Sequence record: PP488543.1
Origin: Escherichia phage BP9
Length of the DNA: 64,000 bases
Reading direction: 5' to 3' (one strand)
Part shown: one piece after another, positions 18,519 through 35,813 of the stretch
Position numbering within the stretch: position 1 is the first letter of the stretch
How the letters are laid out: each line of letters starts with the position of its first letter
Made by a program: the position numbers and the translations under genes
The notes under the pieces: model-generated
The model's database searches: none
What the model was told of the DNA's origin: nothing
Seen by the model: the letters and a program-made list of their open reading frames with translations, nothing else

Positions 18519-19187
18519 ATGGCTGTAGCTTATCCTACAATACCAATTCCAGATCTTGAAGATGCAGAAACAGTCCTGAGTGATGACTTCTTGGTTGTCA
18601 ACCAGACTGATGGGACAAGAAAGGCTAAGATTGACGATGTTGTCAACGATCTTAGCATCACTAAGATAGTCTATTTCACAGAGGGTGGTTATCTTAAGAG
18701 CAAGAAGGACTTTGCTTATGATCCAGAAACTAAGCGCTACTACACGTGGAACGGGGATTATCCTAAAATAATCCTCCCAGACTCCACTGTAGAGGGTGCT
18801 GGGGGTGTGTCTGCAAATGCCTGGTCTGTTTTTGGTGAGCTTGCTGCAACTTCTTCTGGCAGAATAGTTGATTACGGATCTATCGGTGGTCAGCTTGATA
18901 TGGATCTTGAAGTTGCGGATACCTTTAAGGTTCGACTAACTTCAAATACCACAATCTCTTTTGAAAATCAAACAGAAGGTCTTGAAGGGGTGGCGAGAAC
19001 TATAACCGTATGCATTACTCAGACCTCTGGCGGCAACAAAGTCTATTGGCCAGGTAATGTTAAATGGTCCTACGGAAGAGATCCTATCCTAACATTTACA
19101 GCTGGTGCAACAGACATTTTCAAGTTGGAAACCTACGACAACGGGTTAACTTGGTACGGGGCACTGATTATCGCAGGAGCTATCTAA
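18519..19187 (+). CDS. fibre-anchor domain protein (paralog of N-terminus of the 1270-aa fibre)
   Basis: N-terminus DDFLVVNQTDGTRKAKIDDVV...KDFAY parallels DDYLVVQQPDLTRRVKIGDVV...MDFAY of ORF 21823. Confidence 0.55.
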   Translation: MAVAYPTIPIPDLEDAETVLSDDFLVVNQTDGTRKAKIDDVVNDLSITKIVYFTEGGYLKSKKDFAYDPETKRYYTWNGDYPKIILPDSTVEGAGGVSANAWSVFGELAATSSGRIVDYGSIGGQLDMDLEVADTFKVRLTSNTTISFENQTEGLEGVARTITVCITQTSGGNKVYWPGNVKWSYGRDPILTFTAGATDIFKLETYDNGLTWYGALIIAGAI

Positions 19188-19188
19188 G

Positions 19189-21786
19189 ATGCGTATTCAA
19201 CATAACATTGATAACGTATTTCAGATGATTGAGGGGCACAGGAAGTGCCTCGATAACAACACAGGCATTACCAATCTCCCTACGCAGAACAAGCTGGTAA
19301 ACCCTGATGGTCTTATAGCTGCAGGGTGGGCAGGTAATAAGATAAATAATGATTGGGCAATGCATGAGTCCCAAGCTGTGTTGATTCTGGGATACATTGA
19401 AGCATACAGGGCATCGAAAAGCGATTTCTATCTGGATAGGGCAAAAGATGCTTGGGAAGCTTACAATAGTCATCTTCTGGGTGCATATGCAGTAGAAAGT
19501 AAAATGCAAAGATTGTCCCACTACCCTCTATCTACAGATGGGGTTCCATCACATGGTGGGTTTAAAGATGTGGTGGTGTCTTTTACCAATGGTAGAGGAA
19601 AAATCCCAGCTGGATCTCCGACATGGGGAGAATACCTGGACAAGGCATTCCAAGCGTATAACGGTGTGTTAGGAAGAAACACGGTAGACTCCGATGTTTA
19701 CGGTGGCACAGATGCTAACCCAGATTGGACAACATCCGGATTAAGTTGGTGGGTTGAGTGGTATATAGCATGGGATGGTAACCGCTATTGGGCTAACGGT
19801 AGCATAGCCGACAGTGGGCATACGTCTGTAGAGTTCGGCACAATCCAATTACAAGATAAGGGTGTTACAGGAAGCCACAAGGTAACCTATTGTGTAAGAT
19901 TACCTCAAGAGCAGGGTGGATCGGTGATACCTGCAGGATCCCCTGTAATTGTGAATCCTATAAACGTGGTTGCAGACAATCAAGCCCCAGAGTTGGACGG
20001 GGAAGAAATGTGGTGTGACGCTTGTTATCAACTCTACACCTTGACAGGTGAGGAAAAGTATTACACCGCGTTTAAACAGTCTTACAACAAGTTGCTTAAT
20101 TTCAGTGATATAAACGCCTACGACAAACTGTTTAGAAAGACCACGTTGATTAAGGCACCATTTACAGATGGTGCTTGTCTTGTTGCAGGAACAGTTCCTG
20201 TCATGATCAGGGATAGTGACGGGTATATCAATTTTAGAATGAACGCACGCCAGCCTTGCGAAATAATTCAAAAAGGGACTACATACAAAATAGGCAGAGA
20301 TGCTGAAATTGTTATGAATTTCGGAGGAGAAGGGGTTCTGTTCCAGCCACATTTCATCCTTAATGATGGCAACAATAACAAAAAACAGTACAGGATAGGT
20401 GTTCCTTTTGGAGGTGCAGAGGTAACAGAAATAGTTGCCAAGGTTACTGATTTCGTAGAGGTAGTTGGTAAAGACGGTAATCCGTACCTCTTACCTAAAG
20501 AGGAAAACATTGCCGTGAGCGGTGGTGCCAGTGTTAGTATGCAGTACGATACCGACATTTACAACCACTCTGACAACTTCACCCGTTGTAATATAGCAAG
20601 GGGCAAAGTAACTTTCAATTTTGGAAGAGAGATTTCTTTAAACTCAGTAACTTATCGATCAGATGATGAGATGGTAAGGGTCAAATTTCTTGACAAAGAC
20701 AGGTGGTTATGGTATGCTGATCTATATGCCACTAATGGACAATGGATAACAGAAACTCTTACTCTAGGAGATTTCAAACTAGATCCGACACAACCTCATC
20801 ACACCGAAGAAGAGATTAAACCTTTCTTTGCTAATCCTAAGGGGCTCACCTCTGTAGATTTCAGCCTAAGCGACAGGCAGATAGGTAATGGCTTGTTTGA
20901 CCTATATTGTGTCAACACACTGCCGCAATTTTATATTGCAGATAGAGATGCTTATCTAATCTGGTTTAGCGTATGGATGGCAAGCAAGACAGAATCAACC
21001 GCTAGGGTTGGCGATTGCTATGTCAGAAACTACAAGCAAGGCGCATACAGGCACACACCGGGTGTGTTCCCTGCCGGAAAGGTGATAGATAAGGAAAACT
21101 ATCTCTTAGAGGAAAAGCCAAATTGGCCCTACCCTGGCATGCAATATCCAGCAGTCTACTGCATGGGTGCAGAAAACATAGATCGCCATAGATTGTCAAA
21201 TACAATAGGCTTTCTGTATGACGCTCAAGTCTGGTATAATAATACATTTAAGACAGAGGGTCCAGTTGCCTCGCGTTATGTATGGCAGAGAGGTAATGAA
21301 GGGCTGACTGGTTGGTGGGAGATGGTAGATAACTCTAAACTCCAGTCAAGATCTTTTGTTGCTGCGTGCCGCACAATATATGAGCTCAAGAAACATAAAG
21401 AACCTGTTGATGAAAGACTATTCCTGTTCTGCCAGAAATGGGCATGGTTCCTCAACAGATTCCAGTCATCTCATTCAGGAAATCTGCCCACAGACTTTAA
21501 CACCTCTGGGGGATATTCTTATCAAGACAGAGGAGACAGGATGTGGGTGGTAGGTGAATGGCTTGCAGGTTGCTGCTGGCTAGGTCTGTGCGGGTATTCA
21601 GAGACAATACCTCAAATAGATATTGTTGTGGAAGCCTGTGTGAAGCTACTGCAAAAGCACCACTTCATTAATGGGGATAATATTTTAAACGGCTGCTGGG
21701 CAGTTTCTGATCCGGTTGGCTATCACTCTGGCGAAATCCTTCGCGGTCTGGGCCTTTATGCTCAATACCGTGGATTGTACCTTTAA
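19189..21786 (+). CDS. large tail-associated protein, enzyme-like (possible polysaccharide depolymerase)
   Basis: 865 aa; Trp/Tyr-rich, no fibre anchor domain; translationally coupled to preceding anchor-domain gene (TAA-G-ATG). Confidence 0.35.
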   Translation: MRIQHNIDNVFQMIEGHRKCLDNNTGITNLPTQNKLVNPDGLIAAGWAGNKINNDWAMHESQAVLILGYIEAYRASKSDFYLDRAKDAWEAYNSHLLGAYAVESKMQRLSHYPLSTDGVPSHGGFKDVVVSFTNGRGKIPAGSPTWGEYLDKAFQAYNGVLGRNTVDSDVYGGTDANPDWTTSGLSWWVEWYIAWDGNRYWANGSIADSGHTSVEFGTIQLQDKGVTGSHKVTYCVRLPQEQGGSVIPAGSPVIVNPINVVADNQAPELDGEEMWCDACYQLYTLTGEEKYYTAFKQSYNKLLNFSDINAYDKLFRKTTLIKAPFTDGACLVAGTVPVMIRDSDGYINFRMNARQPCEIIQKGTTYKIGRDAEIVMNFGGEGVLFQPHFILNDGNNNKKQYRIGVPFGGAEVTEIVAKVTDFVEVVGKDGNPYLLPKEENIAVSGGASVSMQYDTDIYNHSDNFTRCNIARGKVTFNFGREISLNSVTYRSDDEMVRVKFLDKDRWLWYADLYATNGQWITETLTLGDFKLDPTQPHHTEEEIKPFFANPKGLTSVDFSLSDRQIGNGLFDLYCVNTLPQFYIADRDAYLIWFSVWMASKTESTARVGDCYVRNYKQGAYRHTPGVFPAGKVIDKENYLLEEKPNWPYPGMQYPAVYCMGAENIDRHRLSNTIGFLYDAQVWYNNTFKTEGPVASRYVWQRGNEGLTGWWEMVDNSKLQSRSFVAACRTIYELKKHKEPVDERLFLFCQKWAWFLNRFQSSHSGNLPTDFNTSGGYSYQDRGDRMWVVGEWLAGCCWLGLCGYSETIPQIDIVVEACVKLLQKHHFINGDNILNGCWAVSDPVGYHSGEILRGLGLYAQYRGLYL

Positions 21787-21790
21787 CATA

Positions 21791-21813
21791 GGGGGGCTGT
21801 TTGCCCCCTTTCA
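21791..21813 (+). terminator. hairpin, weak terminator or attenuator
   Basis: GGGGGC-TGTTT-GCCCCC then TTTC. Confidence 0.4.
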
Positions 21814-21822
21814 GGAGAAAGA

Positions 21823-24800
21823 ATGGCTGATATTAAAGTTGTCAGAATTGAATCTCTTCCTGCCACTACCGCAGTGACAGAGGATGATTACCTGGTTGTT
21901 CAACAACCAGACCTGACCCGTCGTGTAAAAATTGGCGATGTTGTCCATGTTGATGGGACTGTTTCTCATGTAATCTCCTTTAAGGAAGGTGGTAAGTTAA
22001 ACGGCCCAATGGATTTTGCCTACTTCGAAGAGGAAGACCTCTACCTGCGTTGGAAAGGCGAATTTCCGCACACTGTTCCTGCACTATCTTCACCGTACTC
22101 CGATGGCGGGATTACTGACGCTGCATGGATGGTATATACTGACCCGTCCTTAAGGGAGGAGCTGGAATCTACCATTGGCGCATCCATGATCATGACAGCC
22201 GAAGGGCAGTCTGTCCAGGATGTAATGGATGTTACTGTTCAGACAGCTAACGATGCCAAAGCACTTGCACAGCGTGTAGATTTTGGTACAGTGCACACTG
22301 TAGGCGATGTTATTCACCTTGATAACTTTGTTGGCCCTGCAGTTATTGAAGAGGGAAGAACTACCAACTACCCTTCTGTAGCAGCTGGTGAAAAATTTCT
22401 GAACGGTGTGGTATCTCGTCGTGATACTACAACTGTTGATGGTATTTTCCGTGGCGCTACCTCCGGAGCAATGTATACCATTGCAGTAACCAACGGTGTA
22501 GCAACAACAAAAAGAATAGCACTTCGTGATGAATTTAAACGCCTGGAGGCAAACAACCAAACAAGAACAATTATCCGTGCTGGAGATGATTTAAACACGG
22601 CAGGGTACTTGCAGCTTGATGCAACAGGCCGTTGGGGTATGTGGAACCAACAAACAGCTTCTTGGCAGCCTCTTGCTATAGAGCAGGGCGGCACAGGGGC
22701 TAGAGATGCCGCTGGAATCCGTACCAATATCGGTGCTTTCTATAAGCAACGTGCAGCCCTTGAGCCAAATTTCAATATCAATAACTTGACTGGTAATCAG
22801 GATGGTATATACTACCAGCCGATGACTGCTTATGCAACTGAGGCAAATGGTTATCCTGCAGGTTCTGGTGCTGGTCACTTGATTGTTTGGCAGAACAATG
22901 CTAACGGTGGTACAGGTTGTCGTCAGGAATACTATCCATTCTCCAACGTAGATGTTTGGTATTTGAGAACCTATCAGGCCAACACAAATCAGTGGACTGC
23001 ATGGCAGCCGATGGTCAGACCTCGTAACGATGATACCTTTAGAGCGCACATCGGTCTCGGGTCTAGAAACTCCCCTACCTTCGGGCACCTTTACCTGTCT
23101 CAAAGCTCTGCGGATGTTAAGTCAGCATCAGGTATTGTTAACGGAGACAAATACAACGCTGACGGTGTCCTTGAGCATGGGTATAGGATCTACTCTGAGG
23201 TAAGGAACGACAATAAGGCTTGGTTGACAATCCACCTGCACAAAGGTGCAAAAGGATCTGAAACTCATAGATATTTAGGCTTCCGTGAGGATGGGGTCTT
23301 AGATTGTCCTAAATATATGCAGGTTGGTGATCTGAACGGTCAGATGGCAAACTGGGGACTTGGAGAATGGATCCGCAGTTCAGGAGCAGAAAGAGGTTTC
23401 TGGGGATCTAAGAAAGCCGCCAAGATGGTCATCTGGGATGGCGGTATGGACGAGCAAGGTGAAGGAACGCTTGAGTGGGGTGTTTATAACAACCGGAAAG
23501 CCAAATGGGAACCACTACCGATAGCTTGTGGTGGTACCAGTGCCAGGACTGTAGGGGATGCTCAAGCACAATTCAGAATCCCTCTGGCAGCAGGTACTAG
23601 ACCATATGTAAACCTGCCTAGAACTGCAGCTATGCAGGACGGTAAGTATTATCCTATTATCGTCAGAACTGACCCCAACTTTGCAGCAACTATCGGGACA
23701 GATTTAACCATTGTCACCAGATCTTCTTCTGGCGGCGACCCAATGAACTGTGCTACACTACAGTGTCACTACAGAATTGGTGGCTGGACAGACAGAGGTG
23801 ATTCTTTCCAAGGGGTTATTAATTTCTACCAAAACGAGAAAGCAATCCTCGGATGTGTATCTCCAACCAGAGGTAAGCAGGAGTATGTTGCATTCTATGT
23901 AGAGGCACGTGCATTCCCTGTTACAGTATATGCTGGCGCTACTGTAATAGAAGTGTCAACCAGGGAGGTTGATTGGCAGGTAGGCAACGTGGAAGGTAAC
24001 CAAGATGGTGTCAAGTTCTGTGCTCCTCTGGCATCTGCAGATTTGAGTCTTGCAATCAAAGGTGATGATGTAACAAACACTAGACCTCTGGTTGAGTTCA
24101 AAGGGACATCAGGTTTCTACACTGGTGGTGGAACTATGTGGCACTACCTGGGAACTCCTGAACGCTATGCAGTGATGAGCAAAATGAACATGCCTAAAGT
24201 CGAGCTTTGGGCAGACGGTATTGACTACATTTGTCCTGGTAGTCAGACCACTAGAAAAGCACTGTTCTCTAACGCAGGGTTCCAAGCTGCATCGGAAGGA
24301 ACAGAGGATCTGATCAACAACACCTTTACCTCTAAATGTGGTAATGGTGCAAGACTACAAGGCCAGGCAGAGTTCAGATCTACTCCAGAGGCTGGTCAAG
24401 TTATTGTTCGTGATGTTGTAGGCACAGCTCATAGATTCTATAACTTCAACAAAGATGGCACTTTCTCAGCCCCTGGTGGTTTTGTATGTCATACTGGTGC
24501 AGACTGGAACAACCAGTTTGGGCCTAACAACCCTTCTAAAATAATGGCAGGCAATGTCAACGGACCTGAAGGATCGATGGTTGTTGGTGGGTTGTCTGTG
24601 GCGTTTTCTGGAAACTATGCCTTCCAAATGGCTGGTCGCCTTGATCAGTTATACACCAGATCTATCGAGGGTGGTAACCATAGGGCATGGAACAAAGTTA
24701 TTCAGCACCGTGGTCAAGGTCTGGGGACAGAAGACCTTAATGACTACGATGGTAGCCGTGAAGGTTTCTATCACCAGGGTTCAAACGCTGACGCACTTGT

Positions 24801-25635
24801 AATAGCTCGTCACTACCCTGCTCCGTACGCTGGTACGCTGCTTGTTTACAAAAACACAGCCAACAGACCGCAAGGTTGTGTGCAGGAATACATTACCTAT
24901 TTTGGTGACAGATATACTCGTGCTGGTAACTACGTTGGCGATGTCTTTACTTGGGAAGAATGGAGACACGATGCTGGTAAGGGCATTCAGTTAAGACCTA
25001 ATTACACTTTCGGTGAAAACAGTACTCAGCTGGAAATTCATGTTGGTGCTAATGGTCTTCCATCCAACGCCGATAACTTACCTACCAACAATGCTATACT
25101 CCATTATTGGGGTAACGGCAGTGCAGGGACTCGTCCAAACGTGTTAGAGTTTAAGGTTCTTGACGAGTCTCAATCGGCTTATGTATGGCATTGCGGTACC
25201 TTGCCGGATAAATCAAGATATCTTTCTGTAAACGGTGCTGTGAATTGCACATCTGTCAATCAGAGTTCTGACAGAGATCTGAAAGATAACATAGCTGTTA
25301 TTCCTGATGCGTTAGAAGCTATCCGGAAGATGAGGGGTTATACTTACACTCTTAAAGAGAACGGTATGCCTTATGCAGGTGTTATAGCACAAGAAGTTCT
25401 TGAAGCGCTGCCGGAAGCAGTTAGCTCTTTCGTGCAAAGAAAGGAAATCCCAAACCCTGATCAGGATGGAACTCCTTTAATAACAGAGGAAAGATTCTAC
25501 AGCGTGGATTACGCAGCTGTAACAGGCTTGCTTGTCCAGGTTTGCAGGGAACAGGATGATAAAATAACCGCCCTTGAGGAGCAGGTTAAAAAATTGACAG
25601 AGGTTGTTACTGGGTTGCAAGAGAAACTGAAGTAA
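21823..25635 (+). CDS. long tail fibre with C-terminal intramolecular chaperone (peptidase S74-like) domain
   Basis: 1270 aa; C-terminal SSDRDLKDNIAVIPDALEAIRKMRGYTYTL...AGVIAQEV...coiled coil matches auto-cleaving chaperone domain. Confidence 0.75.
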   Translation: MADIKVVRIESLPATTAVTEDDYLVVQQPDLTRRVKIGDVVHVDGTVSHVISFKEGGKLNGPMDFAYFEEEDLYLRWKGEFPHTVPALSSPYSDGGITDAAWMVYTDPSLREELESTIGASMIMTAEGQSVQDVMDVTVQTANDAKALAQRVDFGTVHTVGDVIHLDNFVGPAVIEEGRTTNYPSVAAGEKFLNGVVSRRDTTTVDGIFRGATSGAMYTIAVTNGVATTKRIALRDEFKRLEANNQTRTIIRAGDDLNTAGYLQLDATGRWGMWNQQTASWQPLAIEQGGTGARDAAGIRTNIGAFYKQRAALEPNFNINNLTGNQDGIYYQPMTAYATEANGYPAGSGAGHLIVWQNNANGGTGCRQEYYPFSNVDVWYLRTYQANTNQWTAWQPMVRPRNDDTFRAHIGLGSRNSPTFGHLYLSQSSADVKSASGIVNGDKYNADGVLEHGYRIYSEVRNDNKAWLTIHLHKGAKGSETHRYLGFREDGVLDCPKYMQVGDLNGQMANWGLGEWIRSSGAERGFWGSKKAAKMVIWDGGMDEQGEGTLEWGVYNNRKAKWEPLPIACGGTSARTVGDAQAQFRIPLAAGTRPYVNLPRTAAMQDGKYYPIIVRTDPNFAATIGTDLTIVTRSSSGGDPMNCATLQCHYRIGGWTDRGDSFQGVINFYQNEKAILGCVSPTRGKQEYVAFYVEARAFPVTVYAGATVIEVSTREVDWQVGNVEGNQDGVKFCAPLASADLSLAIKGDDVTNTRPLVEFKGTSGFYTGGGTMWHYLGTPERYAVMSKMNMPKVELWADGIDYICPGSQTTRKALFSNAGFQAASEGTEDLINNTFTSKCGNGARLQGQAEFRSTPEAGQVIVRDVVGTAHRFYNFNKDGTFSAPGGFVCHTGADWNNQFGPNNPSKIMAGNVNGPEGSMVVGGLSVAFSGNYAFQMAGRLDQLYTRSIEGGNHRAWNKVIQHRGQGLGTEDLNDYDGSREGFYHQGSNADALVIARHYPAPYAGTLLVYKNTANRPQGCVQEYITYFGDRYTRAGNYVGDVFTWEEWRHDAGKGIQLRPNYTFGENSTQLEIHVGANGLPSNADNLPTNNAILHYWGNGSAGTRPNVLEFKVLDESQSAYVWHCGTLPDKSRYLSVNGAVNCTSVNQSSDRDLKDNIAVIPDALEAIRKMRGYTYTLKENGMPYAGVIAQEVLEALPEAVSSFVQRKEIPNPDQDGTPLITEERFYSVDYAAVTGLLVQVCREQDDKITALEEQVKKLTEVVTGLQEKLK

Positions 25636-26430: not shown

Positions 26431-26877
26431 GTGTGCTCAGGCACTGGTGTTGTAGTAATTGAGGGGCAACATTTTATAGGGATAGGTGGGTCAGCAACAT
26501 TAACCGCTGTGTCTGAGAAAGATGCCACCAACTTCGGATCTGTGGTAGCGACATTGAACGGGTTTGATCCTAAGTATGTGGGTGATCTGCTGAAGACGGA
26601 GTATTCTGGTTGTCGTGCCACGTTGTACATTACCGCTATGGAGAATGGTCTGCCTGTTACAACTAATGGCTTGTTTGACGGCCTTATAACAGATATGGCT
26701 ATTCAGACGGGTGAGAATAGCGCTTTGTCCATATCCATCTCTTCCATCTTCAACAGTTGGTTAAGAGGTTTTCCTTATCGGTACACGGAGGAAAGCCACA
26801 GCTCAAGAAACGATAACGACAGATTTTTTAAATATGTGGATCAGGTGGCGAGCCGCCCGATCATTTGGGAGGTTTAA
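26431..26877 (+). CDS. hypothetical minor tail protein (gpL-like position); 5' end uncertain
   Basis: GTG start 26431 with SD AGGA; frame is open upstream to 26362 and encodes a KLEL repeat. Confidence 0.35.
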   Translation: MCSGTGVVVIEGQHFIGIGGSATLTAVSEKDATNFGSVVATLNGFDPKYVGDLLKTEYSGCRATLYITAMENGLPVTTNGLFDGLITDMAIQTGENSALSISISSIFNSWLRGFPYRYTEESHSSRNDNDRFFKYVDQVASRPIIWEV

Positions 26878-27302
26878 TGAGCACACATCCTCGTCTAGTG
26901 GACTGGCAAGAAAGATTGTGGAAAGTGTTTGACGAAGAGGCCACCATACCTTTTGAATGGGGATTCCACGATTGTTGCACCTTTGCAGCTAAGTGTGTTG
27001 ATGCCCAATACGGAACAGATTTTCTTTCTAACTTCGAAGGAACGTATAAAACAGAGTTGGAAAGCAAAAGATGGTGCATGCTCCGTTTCAAAACCACACA
27101 CCTGCCTACTATTTTTGATCTCTTTATGACTCGGCTGGATACTCCTAAACAGGTTCAGCGTGGAGATATTGTCATTTTCGAAGGTCTGAACGGCCTCACC
27201 GCTGGTGTGTTCTGGAACAACCAGATTTGGGCGAAAGGTGATAAAGGGGTCTTTATGTTCGATATGAAAGATTCTATCGTTGTTGATGTCTGGAGGTATT
27301 AA
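26877..27302 (+). CDS. hypothetical tail assembly protein (gpK-like position), Cys/His motif HDCC
   Basis: ATG 26877 with SD GGGAGG, TAATG coupling (track start 26865). Confidence 0.35.
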   Translation: MSTHPRLVDWQERLWKVFDEEATIPFEWGFHDCCTFAAKCVDAQYGTDFLSNFEGTYKTELESKRWCMLRFKTTHLPTIFDLFMTRLDTPKQVQRGDIVIFEGLNGLTAGVFWNNQIWAKGDKGVFMFDMKDSIVVDVWRY

Positions 27303-30300
27303 TGCCAATTGCAATGATTGATAACATCGTTGCTTCTGCAAGATCTTCAAGTTATGACTGGAACGCATCCAAGGCAGCTCTGGCTGACAGCCTGAACACT
27401 GTTACCACCAGAACTCTGGATAAGATTTTTGAGGGTAACAAATCTTACAGAAGTCAGCAAGATAGACAAAAGCTTCTCAGATCTTCTGCTGCACCCTGCT
27501 CTGTAGTGTATGGAAAGACACGCACATCTGGATTGCTTGCGTTTTTGGAGCAGGATAGAGACAAAACCCTCCATTGTGCTATTGTTCTTGCCAATCACCC
27601 TCTGGAAGGTATAGAAGATATACTTATCGATGGTAATCCTATTTCCTCGTATGGAGATTTGGTATCGTGGGAGTTACATAACGACAGAAAAACGGCTGAT
27701 CCTTTCATGGGGACACACTGCCCATCGTGGTCACCAGACATGATAGGTAGAGGGATCAGTTGGCTACGTGCCAGCTTCAAGTTCGACCCTAACAAGTTTC
27801 CTTTTGGGTTGCCAAACGTTACACTCGTTAAGGTTGGTAAAAAATGCTATGATCCTCGTATCAGTAAAGAGGTGTACACCAATAACGCATCCTTGGTGAT
27901 CCTGGACTATTTAAGAACGTACCTTAAATGTCCTGACGAAACCATCAACTGGGAGTCCTTTAAGGAGGCTGCCAACATATGCGACGAGGCGGTAAAAAAC
28001 GCTGACGGAACCAGTGAGCGACGTTACACCATTAACGGTGAGTTTGACATGGATGAGGCCCCAGCAAGTATTATGGCAGAAATGCTGAAAGCTTGCGGTG
28101 CAGACCTTAGTTATGTTGCTGGTAAGTATGGTTTGCTGGTTGGTGCATACTATGGTCCGGCAACAATGACATTGAGTGAGGACTGTGTCTGTGGTGAGGT
28201 TAAGATCTATCCGGAAGCCTCATTTGACAAAAGATCTAACACAATAACTGGCAGATTCACTAGTCCGACCAAAGGGTATTCTGAAACAGATTTCCCATCA
28301 GTGTTTGTCCCAGAGTGGATAGAGAAGGATGGAGAAAGAAAGATAATCGATATAGACTATCGCTTTGTTACCAGTCCTTATCAAGCTCAACGTGTTTCTG
28401 CAATCTTCTTAAGACGTGCTAGAGCTGGCAGGATTATTGAAGTCACCTGCAATATGCGAGGTTTTAAATTTAAGCCTGGCCGTTACGTTACAATGAATCT
28501 CCCAAGTATTGGTATAGTAGGCCAAGAAATGAGGGTTCTTGAATGGGAGTTCACCAAAAAGGGTGGTGTCAAGGTAAAACTTCGTCAAGATGCTAAAGAG
28601 TGGAATGATGCCACAGGGCAACTTCCGGATTCTGGTGATGTAGATATTCCGATATCTCCATCTGGTGTAGCTCAACCGCAAAACTTCAGATACTCCGTCC
28701 TCCAAGCTGGGGAAATAACTCACGGTGTTCTGGCTTGGGACAACGTTGGGACTTACGCTCAAAATATTGTGCAGGTAAGAAAGAACGGAGAGATTGTTTG
28801 GACAGCACAGACAGTTGAGCAGTTTGTCCGAGTAGAAGGCTTGACCAAAGGGTCATACACAGCAACCGTGGTTGCAACATCTTATAAAGGTGGTGTATCT
28901 CCAGAAGCGTACTGCGAGTTTAACATTCAGGCACCTGAAGCTCCTGTTTCTGTAGAGGTTAAGCAGGGATACTTTGCTATCACCTTGATTCCACACAGCA
29001 GGGATTTAGCAAGTGTAAGCACCCAGTATGACTTTTGGACATCTGGTATGACAAGGTTGCCCGACACCAGCGATGCAACCGTTACTTCAAACGCCACCCG
29101 TATGGGTGTTGGTTCAACTTGGACATCCGAAGGTCTGCAGAACGATAAGGTTTATTATTGGTATATTCGAACCACAAACGCTTTTGGTAGCTCTCAGTTT
29201 GTAGAGTGTGCTGCACGCTGCTATACCTCCATTGAGGATTTGATGCCTCAGATAGATGCTGAATTCAAAAAGACAGAAACTTATAAAGAGTTGATGAGCA
29301 CTTTGGATTCCTCTATTGAAGAGGTTGAAAATCGTGTCACAGAACTTAACAGGTACATGGATGGTAGAGTTGACGAGGCTTTTGACCACATGGAAGGTGA
29401 GTTCTCTAGAGTAGACAAGCTGTATGCTCAGTTGGGAGATAGGGTTGGAATATTCATCCAAGAAACCCACGACAACTTCCAGGACGTTAATGGAACGCTT
29501 ACCACTCTAGATCAGAAACTGGTAGCCACTCAGAACAAGTTTGCAGATGATCTTTCTAAAGAAAGTGGCAAGCTTGCTTCTCTAATCCAGACCACTAACA
29601 AAGCTACAACCGATCTGTTAAATCAGAAAACTGAAGCTTTGGACGAGAAGATTGTTTCAACCAGGGGTGAGTTGGAAGATGCTTTAGCGCAGGAAAGCTC
29701 TGAGCTGAACTCCCTGATTGTATCAACCAATAAAACGACTACAGATCTCCTTAATCGGAAAACCGAGGCTTTAGACAATAAGCTGACGGCAACGAAAGGT
29801 GAGTTGACCAACAATCTGCAGAATGAGAGTGCTAAACTATCGTCCTTGATTGAGTCAACCAACAAATCCACCACTGATCTTCTTAATAAGAAAACAGAGG
29901 CGTTGGATGAAAAACTGGTTGCTGCACAGGGCGAGTTGACTGAGCAGATCGGAGATGTTGAAAAAGGCTATCTGGCTGGTGATAAGAGCCTAGAGGGCAA
30001 GTTGAATACTCAAAGATCTGAGTTGGATGCGAGCATTCTGAGCACTAACCAGGCCACTGTGGACTTGCTGAACAGAACTTCTGAGACTCTTGACCAGAAG
30101 ATTAGCCAGACCAACGCCACAGTGTCCAAAAACTACACCACGCTTGATGGTAAGATAAACACCGCCAAGTCTGATCTTAATACGTTGATTTCTACCACCA
30201 ACAAGGCCACAACTGACCTGTTGAATCAGAAAACGGCAGCTTTGACTGAGCAGTTAACCACTGCTAAAGGGCAGATTACAACCAACACCAATAATATTAC

Positions 30301-31447
30301 TGGGTTGGACAATAAGCTGACTCAGACGAAGAAAGACTTGTCTGCGAATATTTCTGAAACTAATAACGCCACTGTTGATCTGATTAACGGCACAGCGTCA
30401 GCTATTCGTCAAGAACTTGCTGTTGCTAAGCAGGAGATCATTGATGGTGTTGGCGATGTGTCCGAGATCAGGGCTGCAGTAGCTACAACAGCTAAGGCTG
30501 TGACCGACTTAGAGGGTAAAGTAAATGCTCAGTGGGGTACAAAAATACAGGTAGACTCCGCAGGGAATAAATATGTTGCAGGTATCCAGTTGGGGATGGA
30601 AGGGTCTGGGGGCCAAGTTCAATCCTACTTCATGGTTAGTGCAAACAATTTTGCGGTATACAATCCTGGCAATGGAACAGCAACCCTTGCTTTCGCAATC
30701 AAGAACAACCAAGCGTTCTTGAAAGACGCTTTTATAGAGAATGGCACGATCTCCTCTGCCAAGATCGCACAAGAAATTTCGTCAAACAACTACGATGGCA
30801 ACGGGTACCATAAATACGGTTGGTATATTAACAAGAACGGGCACGCCCAATTTATGGATGTGTGGGTGAAAGGCAACATCAACGCCAGTTCTGGTAACTT
30901 CACAGGGGCAGTTAACGCCACTAGTGGTACCTTCCGTGGGGATGTTTATGCCAATAATGGTAGCTTTAGAGGCACCATAGATGCAACCGGAGGTACCTTC
31001 CGTGGTCGTGTAGAAGCTTCTGTTATCCGTGCCAACCAGTTCGAAGGTGCAATTGTTGCACACAGGACTTACGGGGATTGTGCTCCAGTATATAACTCTC
31101 AGCAAAGGGTTTGCCGTTGGAGGTGGAGATACGTAGATAACGTTTCAGGTCAGGGTAAGAACGTAACATTCTTCTTTAAACTGAACGGTACTCTTGCCAG
31201 CTCCCAACTGAATGCATGGATAGCTGGTCATCAGATCCTTGCTGGCAAGAAGTATTTTAACGACAACAACGGCATGTGTGCGGTAGGGATAACAGGTCTG
31301 GGTGAACAAACTATAGACATTGTTATCGAGATTTACACACCGTGGTCAACGTCGAGCGTGACAGGTGTCACAATCTCCTGTCCCACTGTGATAGTAAGTC
31401 GTTCAAACTCTAGCTTCCAGGGACCTTGGAACGAGTCTCACGACTAA
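27302..31447 (+). CDS. central tail fibre / host specificity protein (lambda gpJ-like) with inserted coiled-coil repeats
   Basis: 1381 aa; FN3-like segment and YVAGIQLGMEGSGG...FMVSANNFAVYNPGNG region parallel lambda J; 5-6 tandem TNKxTTDLLNxKTEALDxKL repeats. Confidence 0.75.
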   Translation: MPIAMIDNIVASARSSSYDWNASKAALADSLNTVTTRTLDKIFEGNKSYRSQQDRQKLLRSSAAPCSVVYGKTRTSGLLAFLEQDRDKTLHCAIVLANHPLEGIEDILIDGNPISSYGDLVSWELHNDRKTADPFMGTHCPSWSPDMIGRGISWLRASFKFDPNKFPFGLPNVTLVKVGKKCYDPRISKEVYTNNASLVILDYLRTYLKCPDETINWESFKEAANICDEAVKNADGTSERRYTINGEFDMDEAPASIMAEMLKACGADLSYVAGKYGLLVGAYYGPATMTLSEDCVCGEVKIYPEASFDKRSNTITGRFTSPTKGYSETDFPSVFVPEWIEKDGERKIIDIDYRFVTSPYQAQRVSAIFLRRARAGRIIEVTCNMRGFKFKPGRYVTMNLPSIGIVGQEMRVLEWEFTKKGGVKVKLRQDAKEWNDATGQLPDSGDVDIPISPSGVAQPQNFRYSVLQAGEITHGVLAWDNVGTYAQNIVQVRKNGEIVWTAQTVEQFVRVEGLTKGSYTATVVATSYKGGVSPEAYCEFNIQAPEAPVSVEVKQGYFAITLIPHSRDLASVSTQYDFWTSGMTRLPDTSDATVTSNATRMGVGSTWTSEGLQNDKVYYWYIRTTNAFGSSQFVECAARCYTSIEDLMPQIDAEFKKTETYKELMSTLDSSIEEVENRVTELNRYMDGRVDEAFDHMEGEFSRVDKLYAQLGDRVGIFIQETHDNFQDVNGTLTTLDQKLVATQNKFADDLSKESGKLASLIQTTNKATTDLLNQKTEALDEKIVSTRGELEDALAQESSELNSLIVSTNKTTTDLLNRKTEALDNKLTATKGELTNNLQNESAKLSSLIESTNKSTTDLLNKKTEALDEKLVAAQGELTEQIGDVEKGYLAGDKSLEGKLNTQRSELDASILSTNQATVDLLNRTSETLDQKISQTNATVSKNYTTLDGKINTAKSDLNTLISTTNKATTDLLNQKTAALTEQLTTAKGQITTNTNNITGLDNKLTQTKKDLSANISETNNATVDLINGTASAIRQELAVAKQEIIDGVGDVSEIRAAVATTAKAVTDLEGKVNAQWGTKIQVDSAGNKYVAGIQLGMEGSGGQVQSYFMVSANNFAVYNPGNGTATLAFAIKNNQAFLKDAFIENGTISSAKIAQEISSNNYDGNGYHKYGWYINKNGHAQFMDVWVKGNINASSGNFTGAVNATSGTFRGDVYANNGSFRGTIDATGGTFRGRVEASVIRANQFEGAIVAHRTYGDCAPVYNSQQRVCRWRWRYVDNVSGQGKNVTFFFKLNGTLASSQLNAWIAGHQILAGKKYFNDNNGMCAVGITGLGEQTIDIVIEIYTPWSTSSVTGVTISCPTVIVSRSNSSFQGPWNESHD
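29560..30440 (+). repeat. in-frame tandem coiled-coil repeats (about 37-40 aa units) inside J-like gene
   Basis: Protein-level repeats with synonymous divergence at DNA level. Confidence 0.7.
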
Positions 31448-33054: not shown

Positions 33055-33741
33055 ATGGCAGAGATTAAGTCGGATGTTAACCACATCCACACTCTGCCAG
33101 ATTTTGTTCAGGGAGGTCTTGACTACCTACCTGGAGATTTTCTGGCTGAGAAGGTTAATTTAGTCACATTCTTAACCGTATACCTTAAAAGGTTGGAGGA
33201 TGTTGATAAGATGCTGGTAGGTTTGGCTGAAGGAAGATTGCTTAACAATGCCAGCGGAAGATACCTTGACGAAGTTGGTAATCAATTTGGTATTCTTAGG
33301 AATGGACTTTCAGATGCTGATTTTCGTGCCACACTAATTATTCAGCAGGCCGCAGCATCAAGGGGCGGGACTCGCGAAGATGTCATCTCCACCTTGCGAC
33401 AATTGTTCGGAAGAGACAATTTCGATACGTGGAAAGGAGACAACTTCAGGTTTGACATAAATATTAGAAAAACTTGCTTTGACATATTGCAGTCTATCGA
33501 TCAGATCTTAGATATGCTACCATTGCCTTGTCATTTGCGTCTTACAGAATCGCAAGGGCAAGCTTTTGGTTTTGAAGGGGACTCTACAGCTCTTGGCTTC
33601 GGATCGGTGTGGGAAGAAAACCAATTCGGAGTTGGTGGGCTGGCTACTTTGCTGTATGTTCCTGACGTAAGACCTGATTGGGACACCACAACCATTTATT
33701 GTGAAAGTATTACAGTAAACGCAACTAGACAGGAGGGTTAA
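33055..33741 (+). CDS. hypothetical baseplate protein (gpI-like position)
   Basis: 228 aa following J-like baseplate gene. Confidence 0.3.
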   Translation: MAEIKSDVNHIHTLPDFVQGGLDYLPGDFLAEKVNLVTFLTVYLKRLEDVDKMLVGLAEGRLLNNASGRYLDEVGNQFGILRNGLSDADFRATLIIQQAAASRGGTREDVISTLRQLFGRDNFDTWKGDNFRFDINIRKTCFDILQSIDQILDMLPLPCHLRLTESQGQAFGFEGDSTALGFGSVWEENQFGVGGLATLLYVPDVRPDWDTTTIYCESITVNATRQEG

Positions 33742-35813
33742 TGGCAACAGCTGTTTTTAAACCTTACCGTGATTACTCTACAATGGCTGCACAGTTTCAT
33801 TACCGAACAGTTCAGGATACTGCCGTTCCTGGTAGGGATTATAATCATGTTGAGGGCGATGTAACTATCCCAATTGGGGCAACCAGTATTGAAATCCCAG
33901 TGGAAATTGTTGACAAATTACCCAACAGGTTACCAAGAAGCTTCTTTATGGAGTTTTCATCAAAATCTCAAGGGGTGATGATTGGGACACAAAGGGCAAA
34001 ATGTACAATAGTTTCAGATGAGAATCTTGACAGGATATCTTGGGATACTGTTGAGGAGAGAATGTTTCACCCAAGATATTGGGTTACAACCACCCAGCAG
34101 ACTGAAAGTACCTGTATTGTTGCAGATGACAACTGTTGTATTAACCGTTTAGTGTCAAGAACATATGGGGGTATGGCTGGGTGCATTTGGGAAACAGTTG
34201 ACAAGTATGACCATTTCGGTATTGGGTTTGATGATCACTATGAGATGAGAAATACCAAGCTTTGGTTCAGAATGTCAATAACCAATGCCAGCAACTTCTC
34301 CACTCCTGAAAAGATGATTATGACTGTAGACCTTGTTGATGGCACAATCATCTATGTTCCTTTAGCTCAATATGCTGTCAGCATCTCAGAGGATAAGAAT
34401 GTTGCAGAAATTCATATTGATTTTGAGGACTGCGTCGGGATGGACCAGAACAACAACATGATGGGTGTTGATCCTCGGCAGGTGAGAAGGATTTTAATAC
34501 CGCTCATGCCTAAAGACTGGGTAAGTAATAGCACAGACCCGAGAACGGAAAATGTAGAGTGCGAGTTGCGCTTAGACCTGCTTCAGCCAGACACAGGTTG
34601 GAAAATGATGCAACTTAACAATATTCAGGTTAAAGAGCACGACGTTGGGATCTGCACTGCATATGACGATATGTGGAACGTATCCCCTTTAAGGGTGTTG
34701 AACAATATCAAGCGTCTGGGCTATACCGGAACCATAAACCATTATGTTGGTATGAGTCATTATTATGACTACACGTGGTCAGGAACCCAATGGTCTATAA
34801 ACAGAACAGGGGCGCTAAACGCTGCAGCTTATAAATGGCATGATGATTTTATGTACAATGCCAAACGACATAACTTCGACGTTATGCAGTCTGTAAGTTT
34901 TGAGCTTTACAGCGATGCCTGCCCGTTGGAATGGACCCAAAGAGACTGGAACGATAACTACGCTAAAACAGGGTATACACCTTGTAGCTACCTCCTGTCT
35001 CCAACCATTGAAGAGGGTATGAATTTCCTTACTGCAGTATTTAAGAATTTTGCATCAGCCGCTATGAGAAACAACCTGCCAGTGATTATGCAGGTTGGTG
35101 AACCGTGGTGGTGGTACAATACCGATACTCGTAGACCTTGTATTTATGATTACCCTACAAAACAGGCGTTTTATGATGAGACAGGCGAGTATGCATTAGA
35201 TATTGGGACTATTGACGATCCTAAAACTGGCGGTGTTTACGATAAGTATGTAGCATTTTGTCGTGGTAAGCTTGGCGCTCGTATTGCGGCTATTTCAAAG
35301 GCAATAAAGGCACACGCTGCATCAGCTCAGATGACAGCTCTGCTGTTTTTCCCAACCATTATGGAAACCGAGCTTACGCAAAAGCTTAACCTTGCTGACC
35401 AATATAAAAAGGAAGCAGGTGCTCTTGATTTCTTCTGCACCGAGTGCTACGATTGGGTGATGCAGGGAGGTATTGAAAAGGCAAAAGAGTCTGTAAACAT
35501 ACCTATCGTTAAGTTAGGTTGGCAACCGTCTGAAATACAATACCTTGCAGGGTTCGTTCCTAGCAAAGAGCTTGCTCCGGTATATGGCTACGACCCAACC
35601 AGGAATTACCAAGAATTCTTATGGAGATGTATCTGCGGAAACATGGCAACTATAGAGTATAGATACCCTGAGGTAAAACAGTATGTGTGGGCATACCCGC
35701 AAGTAATGTCTGACAGCATTACTGTTACCGCTAGAGATTCTACCGTGCTTCATATGGGGCAGGTTGCTCTGAAAGGGTATGTAGAGGATGTTGTCCCGCC
35801 AGACTTCTCATAA
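33741..35813 (+). CDS. large baseplate/fibre-associated protein with N-terminal Calx-beta-like segment
   Basis: 690 aa; GRDYNHVEGDVTIPIGATSIEIPVEIVD resembles Calx-beta motif; Trp-rich C-terminal domain. Confidence 0.3.
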   Translation: MATAVFKPYRDYSTMAAQFHYRTVQDTAVPGRDYNHVEGDVTIPIGATSIEIPVEIVDKLPNRLPRSFFMEFSSKSQGVMIGTQRAKCTIVSDENLDRISWDTVEERMFHPRYWVTTTQQTESTCIVADDNCCINRLVSRTYGGMAGCIWETVDKYDHFGIGFDDHYEMRNTKLWFRMSITNASNFSTPEKMIMTVDLVDGTIIYVPLAQYAVSISEDKNVAEIHIDFEDCVGMDQNNNMMGVDPRQVRRILIPLMPKDWVSNSTDPRTENVECELRLDLLQPDTGWKMMQLNNIQVKEHDVGICTAYDDMWNVSPLRVLNNIKRLGYTGTINHYVGMSHYYDYTWSGTQWSINRTGALNAAAYKWHDDFMYNAKRHNFDVMQSVSFELYSDACPLEWTQRDWNDNYAKTGYTPCSYLLSPTIEEGMNFLTAVFKNFASAAMRNNLPVIMQVGEPWWWYNTDTRRPCIYDYPTKQAFYDETGEYALDIGTIDDPKTGGVYDKYVAFCRGKLGARIAAISKAIKAHAASAQMTALLFFPTIMETELTQKLNLADQYKKEAGALDFFCTECYDWVMQGGIEKAKESVNIPIVKLGWQPSEIQYLAGFVPSKELAPVYGYDPTRNYQEFLWRCICGNMATIEYRYPEVKQYVWAYPQVMSDSITVTARDSTVLHMGQVALKGYVEDVVPPDFS

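Follow-up and report, generated by a model that had tools for sequence, protein, structure and literature searches.

A predicted six-hairpin barrel tail protein and its putative adaptor in Escherichia phage BP9 and related phages

The gene at 19189..21786 of Escherichia phage BP9 encodes an 865-aa protein whose core is predicted to fold as a glycoside-hydrolase-type six-hairpin (alpha/alpha)6 barrel, with two beta inserts on one face. We propose, with modest confidence, that it is an adaptor-mounted tail protein, carrying a CBM-like insert, that binds and cleaves a conserved host polysaccharide. Coordinates refer to the window, the whole 64-kb stretch of DNA that was analysed (64,000 nucleotides of record PP488543.1). 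The genes and the adaptor domain discussed below are as follows.

18519..19187, + strand: adaptor gene, 222 aa, orthologue of rV5 gp43 and phi92 gp140; Pfam PF18668 (Tail_spike_N) at aa 51-105
~18864-19184, + strand: C-terminal domain of the adaptor, ~105 aa (aa ~116-222), conserved across lineages
19189..21786, + strand: predicted six-hairpin barrel protein, 865 aa (PHROG 2871, structure model, phi92 gp141 match)
21823..25635, + strand: S74 lateral fibre, 1270 aa, rV5 gp41 orthologue, variable; Tail_spike_N and PF13884 (Peptidase_S74) by Pfam
33741..35813, + strand: possible functional partner, 690 aa, N4 gp65-like, phi92 gp142 orthologue; NCTSP_N and TIM-barrel_NCTSP domains

The 865-aa open reading frame begins with ATG on the + strand, 9 nt downstream of an AGGAG and a single nucleotide after the stop codon of the 222-aa frame. 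Its region is 100% identical to that of Escherichia phage VB-EcoM-WM. The gene is not a chance frame: among 119 matching phage records, 117 carry it in full. Its orthologues, found in the same synteny, are rV5 gp42, LL12 gp42 and phi92 gp141, and full-length amino acid identity is 98-100% with the Vequintavirus orthologues and 35% with phi92 gp141 (E=3e-176). The protein matches PHROG 2871 ("tail protein"), its gene is flanked by a sheath-initiator-like baseplate gene and fibre genes, and mass spectrometry has found rV5 gp42 in virions (PMC3606486). A hairpin lies 3' of the gene; the terminator scan did not flag it because its T-tract is short.

Database labels on the family range from "putative tail protein" and "tail fiber protein" to "glycosidase" and "lateral tail fiber protein (with glycosidase domains)". 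The putative glycosidase annotation is thus already known; for the phi92 protein it is traced to Schwarzer et al. 2012, as cited second-hand. In the literature on rV5 gp42, LL12 gp42 and phi92 gp141 we found annotations only, and nothing on structure, activity, baseplate location or a partner protein. Literature searches likewise returned no experimental activity for any member of the barrel family and nothing relevant on "six-hairpin" phage tail glycosidases, and a 2026 cryo-EM paper on phi92 does not mention gp141.

The full-length model of the 865-aa protein is of moderate quality (pLDDT 70, pTM 0.54). A second alignment-based search returned the same six proteins, and the model therefore rests on a seven-sequence alignment. 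Twelve helices are predicted to form an inner and an outer ring, and the modelled barrel superposes significantly on known six-hairpin members. The predicted parts are listed below.

19189..19485, + strand: barrel segment 1, aa 1-99, modelled helices 2-23, 59-76 and 79-95
19486..19983, + strand: beta insert 1, aa ~100-265, mostly strands with mixed model confidence; conserved G135 and P257
19984..20148, + strand: barrel segment 2, aa ~266-320, modelled helices 269-286, 289-306 and 308-318
20149..21144, + strand: beta insert 2, aa ~321-652, two beta subdomains, conserved PYPG(Y/M)QYP motif at its C-terminal end
21145..21786, + strand: barrel segment 3, aa ~653-865 and stop codon, helices 663-687, 710-735, 742-761, 785-800, 809-824 and 843-860

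One subdomain of beta insert 2 (aa ~440-615) is most likely a CBM-like, galactose-binding-like jelly roll: in the model it is a beta sandwich superposable on CBM11/CBM4-like modules, and its hit list also includes CIA30 and MAM domains, so that the fold serves non-sugar functions too. There is no homologue structure for the protein or its adaptor in the PDB, and a BFVD fold search with the model returned uninformative "tail fiber" or nameless viral homologues only. The sequence-only reading had proposed a glycan-active tail enzyme, and held that a beta-helix or a fibre-only fold would speak against it; the model contains a helical barrel and beta sandwiches, with beta-helix, triple helix and coiled coil all absent. 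It had also pointed to richness in Trp, Tyr and Cys, which is real but modest (3.1%, 5.5% and 2.0%, the last from 17 Cys, versus 1.8%, 3.8% and 1.3% over all window frames of at least 150 aa), and composition by itself is no evidence for enzymatic function.

Known right-handed beta-helix tailspikes carry an N-terminal particle-binding domain. According to the model and Pfam, the 865-aa protein has neither feature: as the sequence-only reading had noted, it has no fibre anchor, Pfam finds no domain in it, and the model opens directly with a barrel helix (residues 2-23). Within Vequintavirus, nucleotide identity of at least 95% was retained by the 865-aa gene in 104 of 119 records and by the adaptor gene in 111 of 118, versus only 8 of 122 for the adjacent S74 fibre. 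The 865-aa gene diverges by ~2.3% in nucleotides versus ~1% in amino acids, and is therefore under purifying selection. Next to a variable fibre the cassette is highly conserved, which suggests that its target is a conserved glycan and not a variable capsule. The GenBank product names and the position of the gene among fibre genes would agree with an ordinary trimeric tail fibre or beta-helix tailspike depolymerase that acts on variable capsule or O-antigen. This reading is contradicted by the modelled fold, by the missing anchor domain and by the near-invariance of the gene among Vequintavirus phages, whereas true specificity determinants vary (BASEL paper), and we find it scarcely credible. 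Of the earlier suggestion of a polysaccharide depolymerase, then, the classical form acting on variable capsule or O-antigen is unlikely.

The fold class by itself has precedents. Predicted alpha/alpha-toroid depolymerase domains of phage receptor-binding proteins, which share the same broad fold class and are known by fold class only, are rare in the DepoScope set (11 of 984) and in a survey of Klebsiella prophages (29 of ~3,900). No glycoside hydrolase family was matched by the 865-aa protein in Pfam, NCBIfam and PDB sequence searches (phmmer/hmmsearch). The only PDB matches at the sequence level fall in barrel segment 1 and consist of a hairpin motif of cellobiose 2-epimerases and GH76 enzymes (E about 1e-3).

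Among known six-hairpin (alpha/alpha)6 glycoside hydrolases, clan GH-M (GH8, with E. coli BcsZ, and GH48) comes closest, and three enzyme families were considered. For GH8, PF01270 matched neither the 865-aa protein nor the barrel region of 42 relatives (E<=1); its sole match is an extra C-terminal domain of P0055. The barrel family was also compared by hhalign with E. coli BcsZ and 120 orthologues, using both full and barrel-only family alignments. The barrel-only comparison gave a score of 24.1 (P 0.027, probability 1.8%) that 11 of 60 block shuffles reach, and since shuffled controls match it, it is kept as a lead only. The GH8 profile was shallow because all returned BcsZ homologues were at least 60% identical. 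In this alignment, whose score lies within the shuffled null, E60 is paired with E55 of BcsZ and D270 with D116; the motif resemblance (TEGQ versus SEGQ, DAExW versus SDGDVW) has no statistical support, and hhalign identified no counterpart of the BcsZ catalytic base D243 in the barrel family. GH8 enzymes are moreover compact (BcsZ has 368 aa), whereas the barrel here is split by beta inserts of ~165 and ~330 aa that GH8 lacks, and in P0055 the genuine GH8 is a separate domain besides the barrel. For GH76, PF03663 was matched by 2 of the 42 relatives (best E 0.0049, below the curated cut-off) and not by the 865-aa protein, which PDB GH76 chains match in the hairpin motif only. For AGE/cellobiose 2-epimerases, the similarity is confined to a helix-hairpin motif of ~33 residues (E about 1e-3) that matches at two different epimerase repeats, and the most conserved residues of the barrel family include no His. 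A six-hairpin enzyme performing non-hydrolytic chemistry on a surface glycan, such as an AGE-type 2-epimerase or isomerase or a lyase-like enzyme, appears highly improbable to us. Assignment of the protein to a specific glycoside hydrolase family has no support. The earlier proposal of a glycan-active tail enzyme is partly supported: the predicted fold is glycosidase-like, but no specific family backs it.

Clustering at 50% identity divides the barrel family into 363 clusters. Its helix N-caps hold polar residues that stay conserved in relatives only 17-30% identical to the 865-aa protein: among 124 full-length relatives E60 is conserved in 91%, Q62 in 89%, D270 in 94%, Q652 in 93%, Q680 in 98%, R721 in 95% and E849 in 88%. 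Residues E60 and Q62 (codons 19366-19374) cap the second helix, where the family has TEGQ and this protein HESQ; D270 (codon 19996-19998) caps a helix of barrel segment 2 within the family consensus DAExW. Barrel segment 3 contributes Q680, E849, R721 and also Y683. At several highly conserved positions the rV5 clade differs from the family consensus (W->Y100, N->E103 and Y->M651), and Y->H622 is a further difference in this window. With pocket geometry taken from helix topology only, the inner helices would frame a cleavage pocket at their N-caps, where E60 and D270 are the candidate carboxylates for catalysis.

The 865-aa gene lies, as had been observed from the sequence, between a gene with an anchor domain (222 aa, PF18668 Tail_spike_N) and the S74 fibre gene (1270 aa). 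The N-terminal 105 aa of the 222-aa protein are 38% identical to the N-terminus of that fibre. In 10 of 10 phage lineages examined, its ~105-aa C-terminal domain ends the frame immediately upstream of the barrel gene, while the N-terminal anchors that precede it differ by lineage. Carriers include rV5-like phages, phi92, phAPEC8-like phages, Rosemountvirus, Autographiviridae (where the domain sits behind a T7 tail-fibre N domain), SPN3US, GAP52, Erwinia phiEa104 and Vibrio phages, and the domain also precedes the barrel gene in a Burkholderia prophage and an SU10-like contig. For lineages that did not enter the respective model, E-values lie between 1e-25 and 1.6e-34, with 7e-20 for the Burkholderia prophage. 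When loci were scanned in six frames, the domain occurred once per locus, always in the upstream frame. It has an Asp-box-like motif and no Pfam or PDB match. No Rosetta-stone fusion of the adaptor domain with the barrel was found; the sole fusion-like case is P0063, an odd 293-aa protein with an N-terminal barrel fragment followed by the adaptor domain. The adaptor is thus a separate anchor protein, encoded next to the barrel gene and co-inherited with it, and its C-terminal domain most likely docks the barrel protein. The absence of an anchor holds for the 865-aa protein itself; most likely the upstream gene provides one in trans.

This two-gene cassette is apparently undescribed so far. The adaptor gp37 of K1E, K1-5 and SP6, the gp66-gp63.1 pair of G7C and TSP1-4 of CBA120 likewise combine an anchorless receptor-side protein with an adjacent anchor-bearing one, and the anchor domain here, Tail_spike_N, takes its name from CBA120 TSP1 and G7C gp66 (an Aeromonas podophage has the T7 tail-fibre N domain instead). 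Unlike in these adaptor-mounted tailspikes, the cargo is predicted to be a globular six-hairpin protein and not a trimeric beta-helix, the putative docking domain is distinct (~105 aa), and the cassette is common to myophages, podophages and a prophage.

Several relatives carry additional modules. Nine of the 42 are fused to a lambda gpL-like module and others to a gpJ-like one (Phage-tail_3), both of them tail-tip domains. P0055 is fused to a true GH8 (E=7e-44), P0054 has an SGNH esterase domain within its chain, and P0017 and P0035 are fused to an N4 gp65-like module, a gp65-type TIM barrel. This is the module type that has a domain predicted to be a poly-GlcNAc deacetylase in phi92 gp142, with which the 690-aa protein of the window shares 42% identity. 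The barrel and gp142-like genes are adjacent in phi92 (gp141-gp142) and in the phAPEC8-like phage anhysbys. Fusions to bona fide enzymes fit a carrier barrel just as well as a catalytic one.

The barrel protein could accordingly be a non-catalytic platform or lectin, a structural hub hung from the adaptor, maybe sugar-binding, that carries effectors in cis (in relatives) or in trans (the gp142-like protein in rV5 and phi92). What relatives have added at the C-terminus or within the chain are enzymes or receptor binders in their own right, and the adjacency of gp141 and gp142 in phi92 and anhysbys fits this as well. The 690-aa protein of the window has no recognisable anchor, only Calx-beta and NCTSP domains. 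No family membership among glycoside hydrolases is demonstrable for the barrel protein, and an archaeal virus has the six-hairpin fold in a structural tail protein too (7xdi_F). However, acidic and polar N-cap residues conserved at ~90% or more at below 30% identity would be less usual in a scaffold than in a catalytic or ligand pocket, most family members lack an extra module (including all inspected phage examples), and an NCTSP-like gene is missing from the flanks of 7 of the cassettes examined. We regard a non-catalytic role as a real possibility, though a doubtful one.

Under the binding-and-cleaving reading that we prefer, the gp43-type adaptor, translationally coupled with the barrel gene, would supply a lineage-specific anchor (here Tail_spike_N, as on the S74 fibre), and its family-wide C-terminal domain would hold the barrel protein at the periphery of the baseplate. 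The mounted protein would most likely bind and then, through its putative catalysis, cleave a conserved host surface polysaccharide, which may help the phage to get to the outer membrane.

A wider reading can be drawn, which we consider rather unlikely as a whole. The cassette of adaptor and six-hairpin enzyme might be mobile, plugged horizontally into myophage baseplates, T7-like and SU10-like podophage tails and prophages. In the rV5/phi92 group, a chain of globular enzymes running from gp43/gp140 through gp42/gp141 to the gp65-like gp142 orthologue might then account for an unassigned density at the periphery of the phi92 baseplate, either the fibre I arm or fibre II. It might process a conserved ManNAc-containing NGR polysaccharide: one subunit would bind or deacetylate the glycan, which the barrel would cleave. 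A preprint names gp142 as an example of a proposed NGR surface polysaccharide binder. The 2026 cryo-EM study of phi92 assigned no protein to fibre II and did not consider gp141.

Phages of the rV5-like and phi92-like groups have a broad host range and are candidates for therapy. The adaptor and its putative enzyme offer a concrete candidate complex for the phi92 maps and a defined protein pair for co-expression and activity assays. If the barrel proved to hydrolyse a conserved glycan, for instance NGR, it would, as far as we are aware, be the first characterised alpha/alpha-toroid enzyme of a virion, and such activity would make it an anti-exopolysaccharide enzyme of broad spectrum, not one tied to a serotype. 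If the barrel is inactive, it would be an example of a glycosidase fold reused as a structural hub.

The 865-aa open reading frame has the position (19189-21786), length and frame given by the sequence-only reading, and it lies, as that reading had it, between an anchor-domain protein and the S74 fibre:

18519-19187, plus strand: adaptor, a 222-aa protein with a Tail_spike_N domain
19189-21786, plus strand: 865-aa protein, the barrel protein discussed below
21823-25635, plus strand: 1270-aa fibre with Tail_spike_N and Peptidase_S74 domains

The gene is already known. The region 19189-21786 is 100% identical in Escherichia phage VB-EcoM-WM and 97-98% identical in about 100 rV5-like phages (Vequintavirus). 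Gene order runs from tape measure through tube initiator, hub, spike and baseplate protein to the 222-aa, 865-aa and 1270-aa products; the tail genes of BASEL phage EduardKellenberger follow the same order, and there the counterpart is annotated "lateral tail fiber protein with glycosidase domains". By position and literature, the 865-aa product is gp42 of rV5/LL12, which can be aligned with phi92 gp141 across almost the full length (PMC7229145) and was detected by mass spectrometry in purified rV5 virions (PMC3606486). In our comparison phi92 gp141 matched the 865-aa protein over its whole length (35% identity, E=3e-176). A passage in a review, citing Schwarzer et al. 2012, calls gp141 a "glycosidase", and PHROGs places the 865-aa protein in phrog_2871, "tail protein".

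Searches of Pfam, NCBIfam and PDB sequences returned no match for the 865-aa protein, in line with the claim that it lacks a fibre anchor: it contains no Pfam domain. Its reported richness in Trp, Tyr and Cys was also borne out (3.1%, 5.5% and 2.0%, versus 1.8%, 3.8% and 1.3% in the long ORFs of the window). An AlphaFold2 model built on seven aligned sequences (98% down to 25% identity; pLDDT 70, pTM 0.54) places long helices at residues 2-95, 269-318 and 655-860, with two beta-rich stretches between them. This arrangement points to a glycosidase-type barrel, one loop of which holds an inserted CBM-like module. None of the phage homologues has a solved structure. The sole match in PDB-sequence profile searches was a helix-hairpin motif of about 33 residues in cellobiose 2-epimerases and GH76 (E about 1e-3), which fits the six-hairpin superfamily and is diagnostic of no single family.

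Searched with a family profile, a set of 1.84 billion representative proteins yielded 363 clusters of the barrel family, 164 of them at E<=1e-30; most are 900-1000 aa long and match end to end. By tblastn, the family is present in 524 phage records, including Vequintavirus, phi92/phAPEC8-like phages, jumbo phages PBECO4 and SPN3US, Erwinia phiEa104, Rosemountvirus, podophages GAP52, Kaonashi and Aeromonas Atoyac23, and Vibrio phages. Among polar positions, conservation in 124 full-length relatives is highest at E60 (91%), Q62 (89%), D270 (94%), Q652 (93%), Q680 (98%), R721 (95%) and E849 (88%), and at R341, D502 and Y683. In the model, E60, D270 and Q652 mark the starts of successive helices, each at the N-terminal end or just ahead of it and immediately after a long loop or insert. 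The active site of six-hairpin enzymes lies on the face with such helix N-terminal ends, and the helix topology would place these three residues on the putative active-site face. At residue 622 (21052-21054), in the conserved Y.PGV.P linker that closes beta insert 2, this phage and cluster representative P0002 have His, where 93% of the family and P0001, the commonest rV5-type variant, have Tyr.

The family motifs TEGQ (HESQ in the 865-aa protein) and DAExW resemble TSEGQ and SDGDVW of the GH8 enzyme BcsZ. Aligning the barrel-only family alignment with that of BcsZ by hhalign covered 289 columns and paired E60 with E55 and D270 with D116, but 11 of 60 block-shuffled controls reached its score of 24.1; the GH8 Pfam model matched none of 42 relatives. 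For these two reasons GH8 membership was dropped and the protein is not filed under GH8. The motif likeness is kept as a lead for structure-based comparison.

Several relatives (P numbers denote cluster representatives) carry additional domains. An N-terminal lambda gpL-like Phage_min_tail domain is found in 9 of the 42; a gpJ-like Phage-tail_3 domain precedes the barrel in P0068. In P0017 and P0035 the barrel runs on into NCTSP_N and TIM-barrel_NCTSP of N4 gp65 type. Among metagenomic relatives, the barrel of P0055 is followed by a true GH8 domain (aa 1033-1344, E 7e-44), and P0054 has an SGNH/GDSL esterase domain within the chain (aa 778-990). These fusions place the barrel at the tail tips of several tail types, among carbohydrate-active modules. 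They also lend support to a rival view, that the barrel serves to carry other enzymes. Its reading as a predicted glycan-active tail enzyme is supported by fold and context.

In all lineages inspected, a small ORF of 156-473 aa lies directly upstream of the barrel gene. These ORFs share a C-terminal domain of about 105 aa (QGxGANKVxWP..VKW.NG..P.LS...G..D.......D.G.TW.G) that has no match in Pfam or PDB, and their N-terminal parts are unlike:

Window: Tail_spike_N
Aeromonas phage Atoyac23: T7 tail-fibre N-terminal domain
Remaining lineages: other sequences

An HMM from four of the C-terminal domains recovered the other four (E 1e-25 to 1e-32), and one from all eight, run on six-frame translations, matched once at each locus, in every case at the C-terminal end of the upstream ORF. 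The domain was also found in a Burkholderia prophage outside the training set (E 7e-20), upstream of P0017 on an SU10-like contig (E 1.6e-34) and in phi92 gp140 (42% identity). In Atoyac23 the pair comes after internal virion protein D, at the tail-fibre position. In the window a single nucleotide separates the adaptor stop codon from the barrel-gene ATG, with AGGAG upstream. Over residues 1-105 the adaptor shares 38% identity with the N-terminus of the S74 fibre, and the two proteins probably dock at the same kind of site. If the conserved adaptor domain holds the barrel protein, as we infer, the two should be inherited together while the anchors change, and this is the pattern seen. No earlier description appears to exist of the conserved cassette, the split-barrel-with-CBM architecture or the fusion partners.

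Two further observations concern the adaptor domain. The adaptor of the Burkholderia vietnamiensis prophage (locus L011, 6567-7988; 473 aa) has an SPRY domain ahead of the conserved domain, and a phage integrase gene lies about 2.6 kb from the cassette. In P0063, an odd metagenomic representative of 293 aa, the adaptor domain (E 4e-20) comes after about the first 185 residues of the barrel family, opposite to the order in which the two genes usually stand; recombination, a frameshift in the gene call or misassembly may explain it.

A 2026 cryo-EM paper on phi92 assigned gp139, gp145/146 and gp147, and gp143 tentatively; it assigned no protein to fibre II, listed gp140 among fibre-like candidates and never mentioned gp141. 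This leaves the gp140-gp141 pair, possibly joined by gp142, as a candidate for unassigned peripheral density of the phi92 baseplate.

Other features of the window were noted. In the gap from the 865-aa ORF stop to the S74-fibre RBS/ATG, a GC-rich hairpin (21787-21822; AGGGGGGC-TGTT-TGCCCCCT, then TTTC) was not flagged by a terminator scan because its T-tract is too short; it could serve as a weak terminator or affect RNA stability, and in either role would divide the conserved cassette from the variable fibre gene. A 1381-aa protein (27302-31447) combines the siphophage lambda gpJ-type modules Ig_J, Ig_J_second and Phage_Tail_Tip with an apolipoprotein-like helical stretch, an unusual combination in the contractile-tail baseplate cluster of a myovirus. 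Abutting it upstream is a 145-aa DUF6950 protein (26865-27302, E 2.7e-33), whose BASEL orthologue is labelled "cell wall hydrolase protein".

Conservation within the genus differs among the three adjacent genes.

Records with at least 95% nucleotide identity
865-aa ORF: 104 of 119
Adaptor: 111 of 118
Adjacent S74 fibre: 8 of 122, only 75 of which span at least 80% of the query

The 865-aa ORF shows about 2.3% nucleotide versus about 1% amino-acid divergence. About 18-23 GenBank "Campylobacter phage" records with Campylobacter jejuni as stated host (including MG065646, MG065647, MG065654, MG065655, MG065661, MG065666, MG065674 and MG065690) are 97-99% identical to this E. coli rV5-like phage over the tail genes; their host labels look doubtful, and they may be contaminating coliphages.

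Of the proposal that the protein is a depolymerase or another glycan-active tail enzyme, the broader part agrees with predicted fold, context and existing annotation. Given the high conservation of the 865-aa ORF and adaptor beside a variable fibre, a serotype-specific depolymerase is unlikely and a conserved target more likely; the BASEL authors argued similarly for conserved glycan-active fibre components. Among predicted phage depolymerases, alpha/alpha-toroid folds are a rarity, at about 1%. One conserved exopolysaccharide, NGR, is WecB/NfrB-dependent, probably contains ManNAc and is needed by Vequintavirus and Justusliebigvirus phages (PMC8669472); a 2026 preprint proposes that in both genera it is bound by a tail fibre protein, with gp142 of phi92 as the example. 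The window encodes a 690-aa protein (33741-35813) with Calx-beta, NCTSP_N and TIM-barrel_NCTSP domains (N4 gp65-like), 42% identical to gp142 and with no recognisable anchor domain. Genes for gp141 and gp142 are neighbours in phi92 and in a phAPEC8-like phage, and two metagenomic clusters join barrel and NCTSP-type modules in one protein. Seven other cassettes are flanked by no NCTSP-like gene, so the barrel-NCTSP link is lineage-specific; the adjacency and the fusions suggest that the barrel protein and the gp142-like protein work together.
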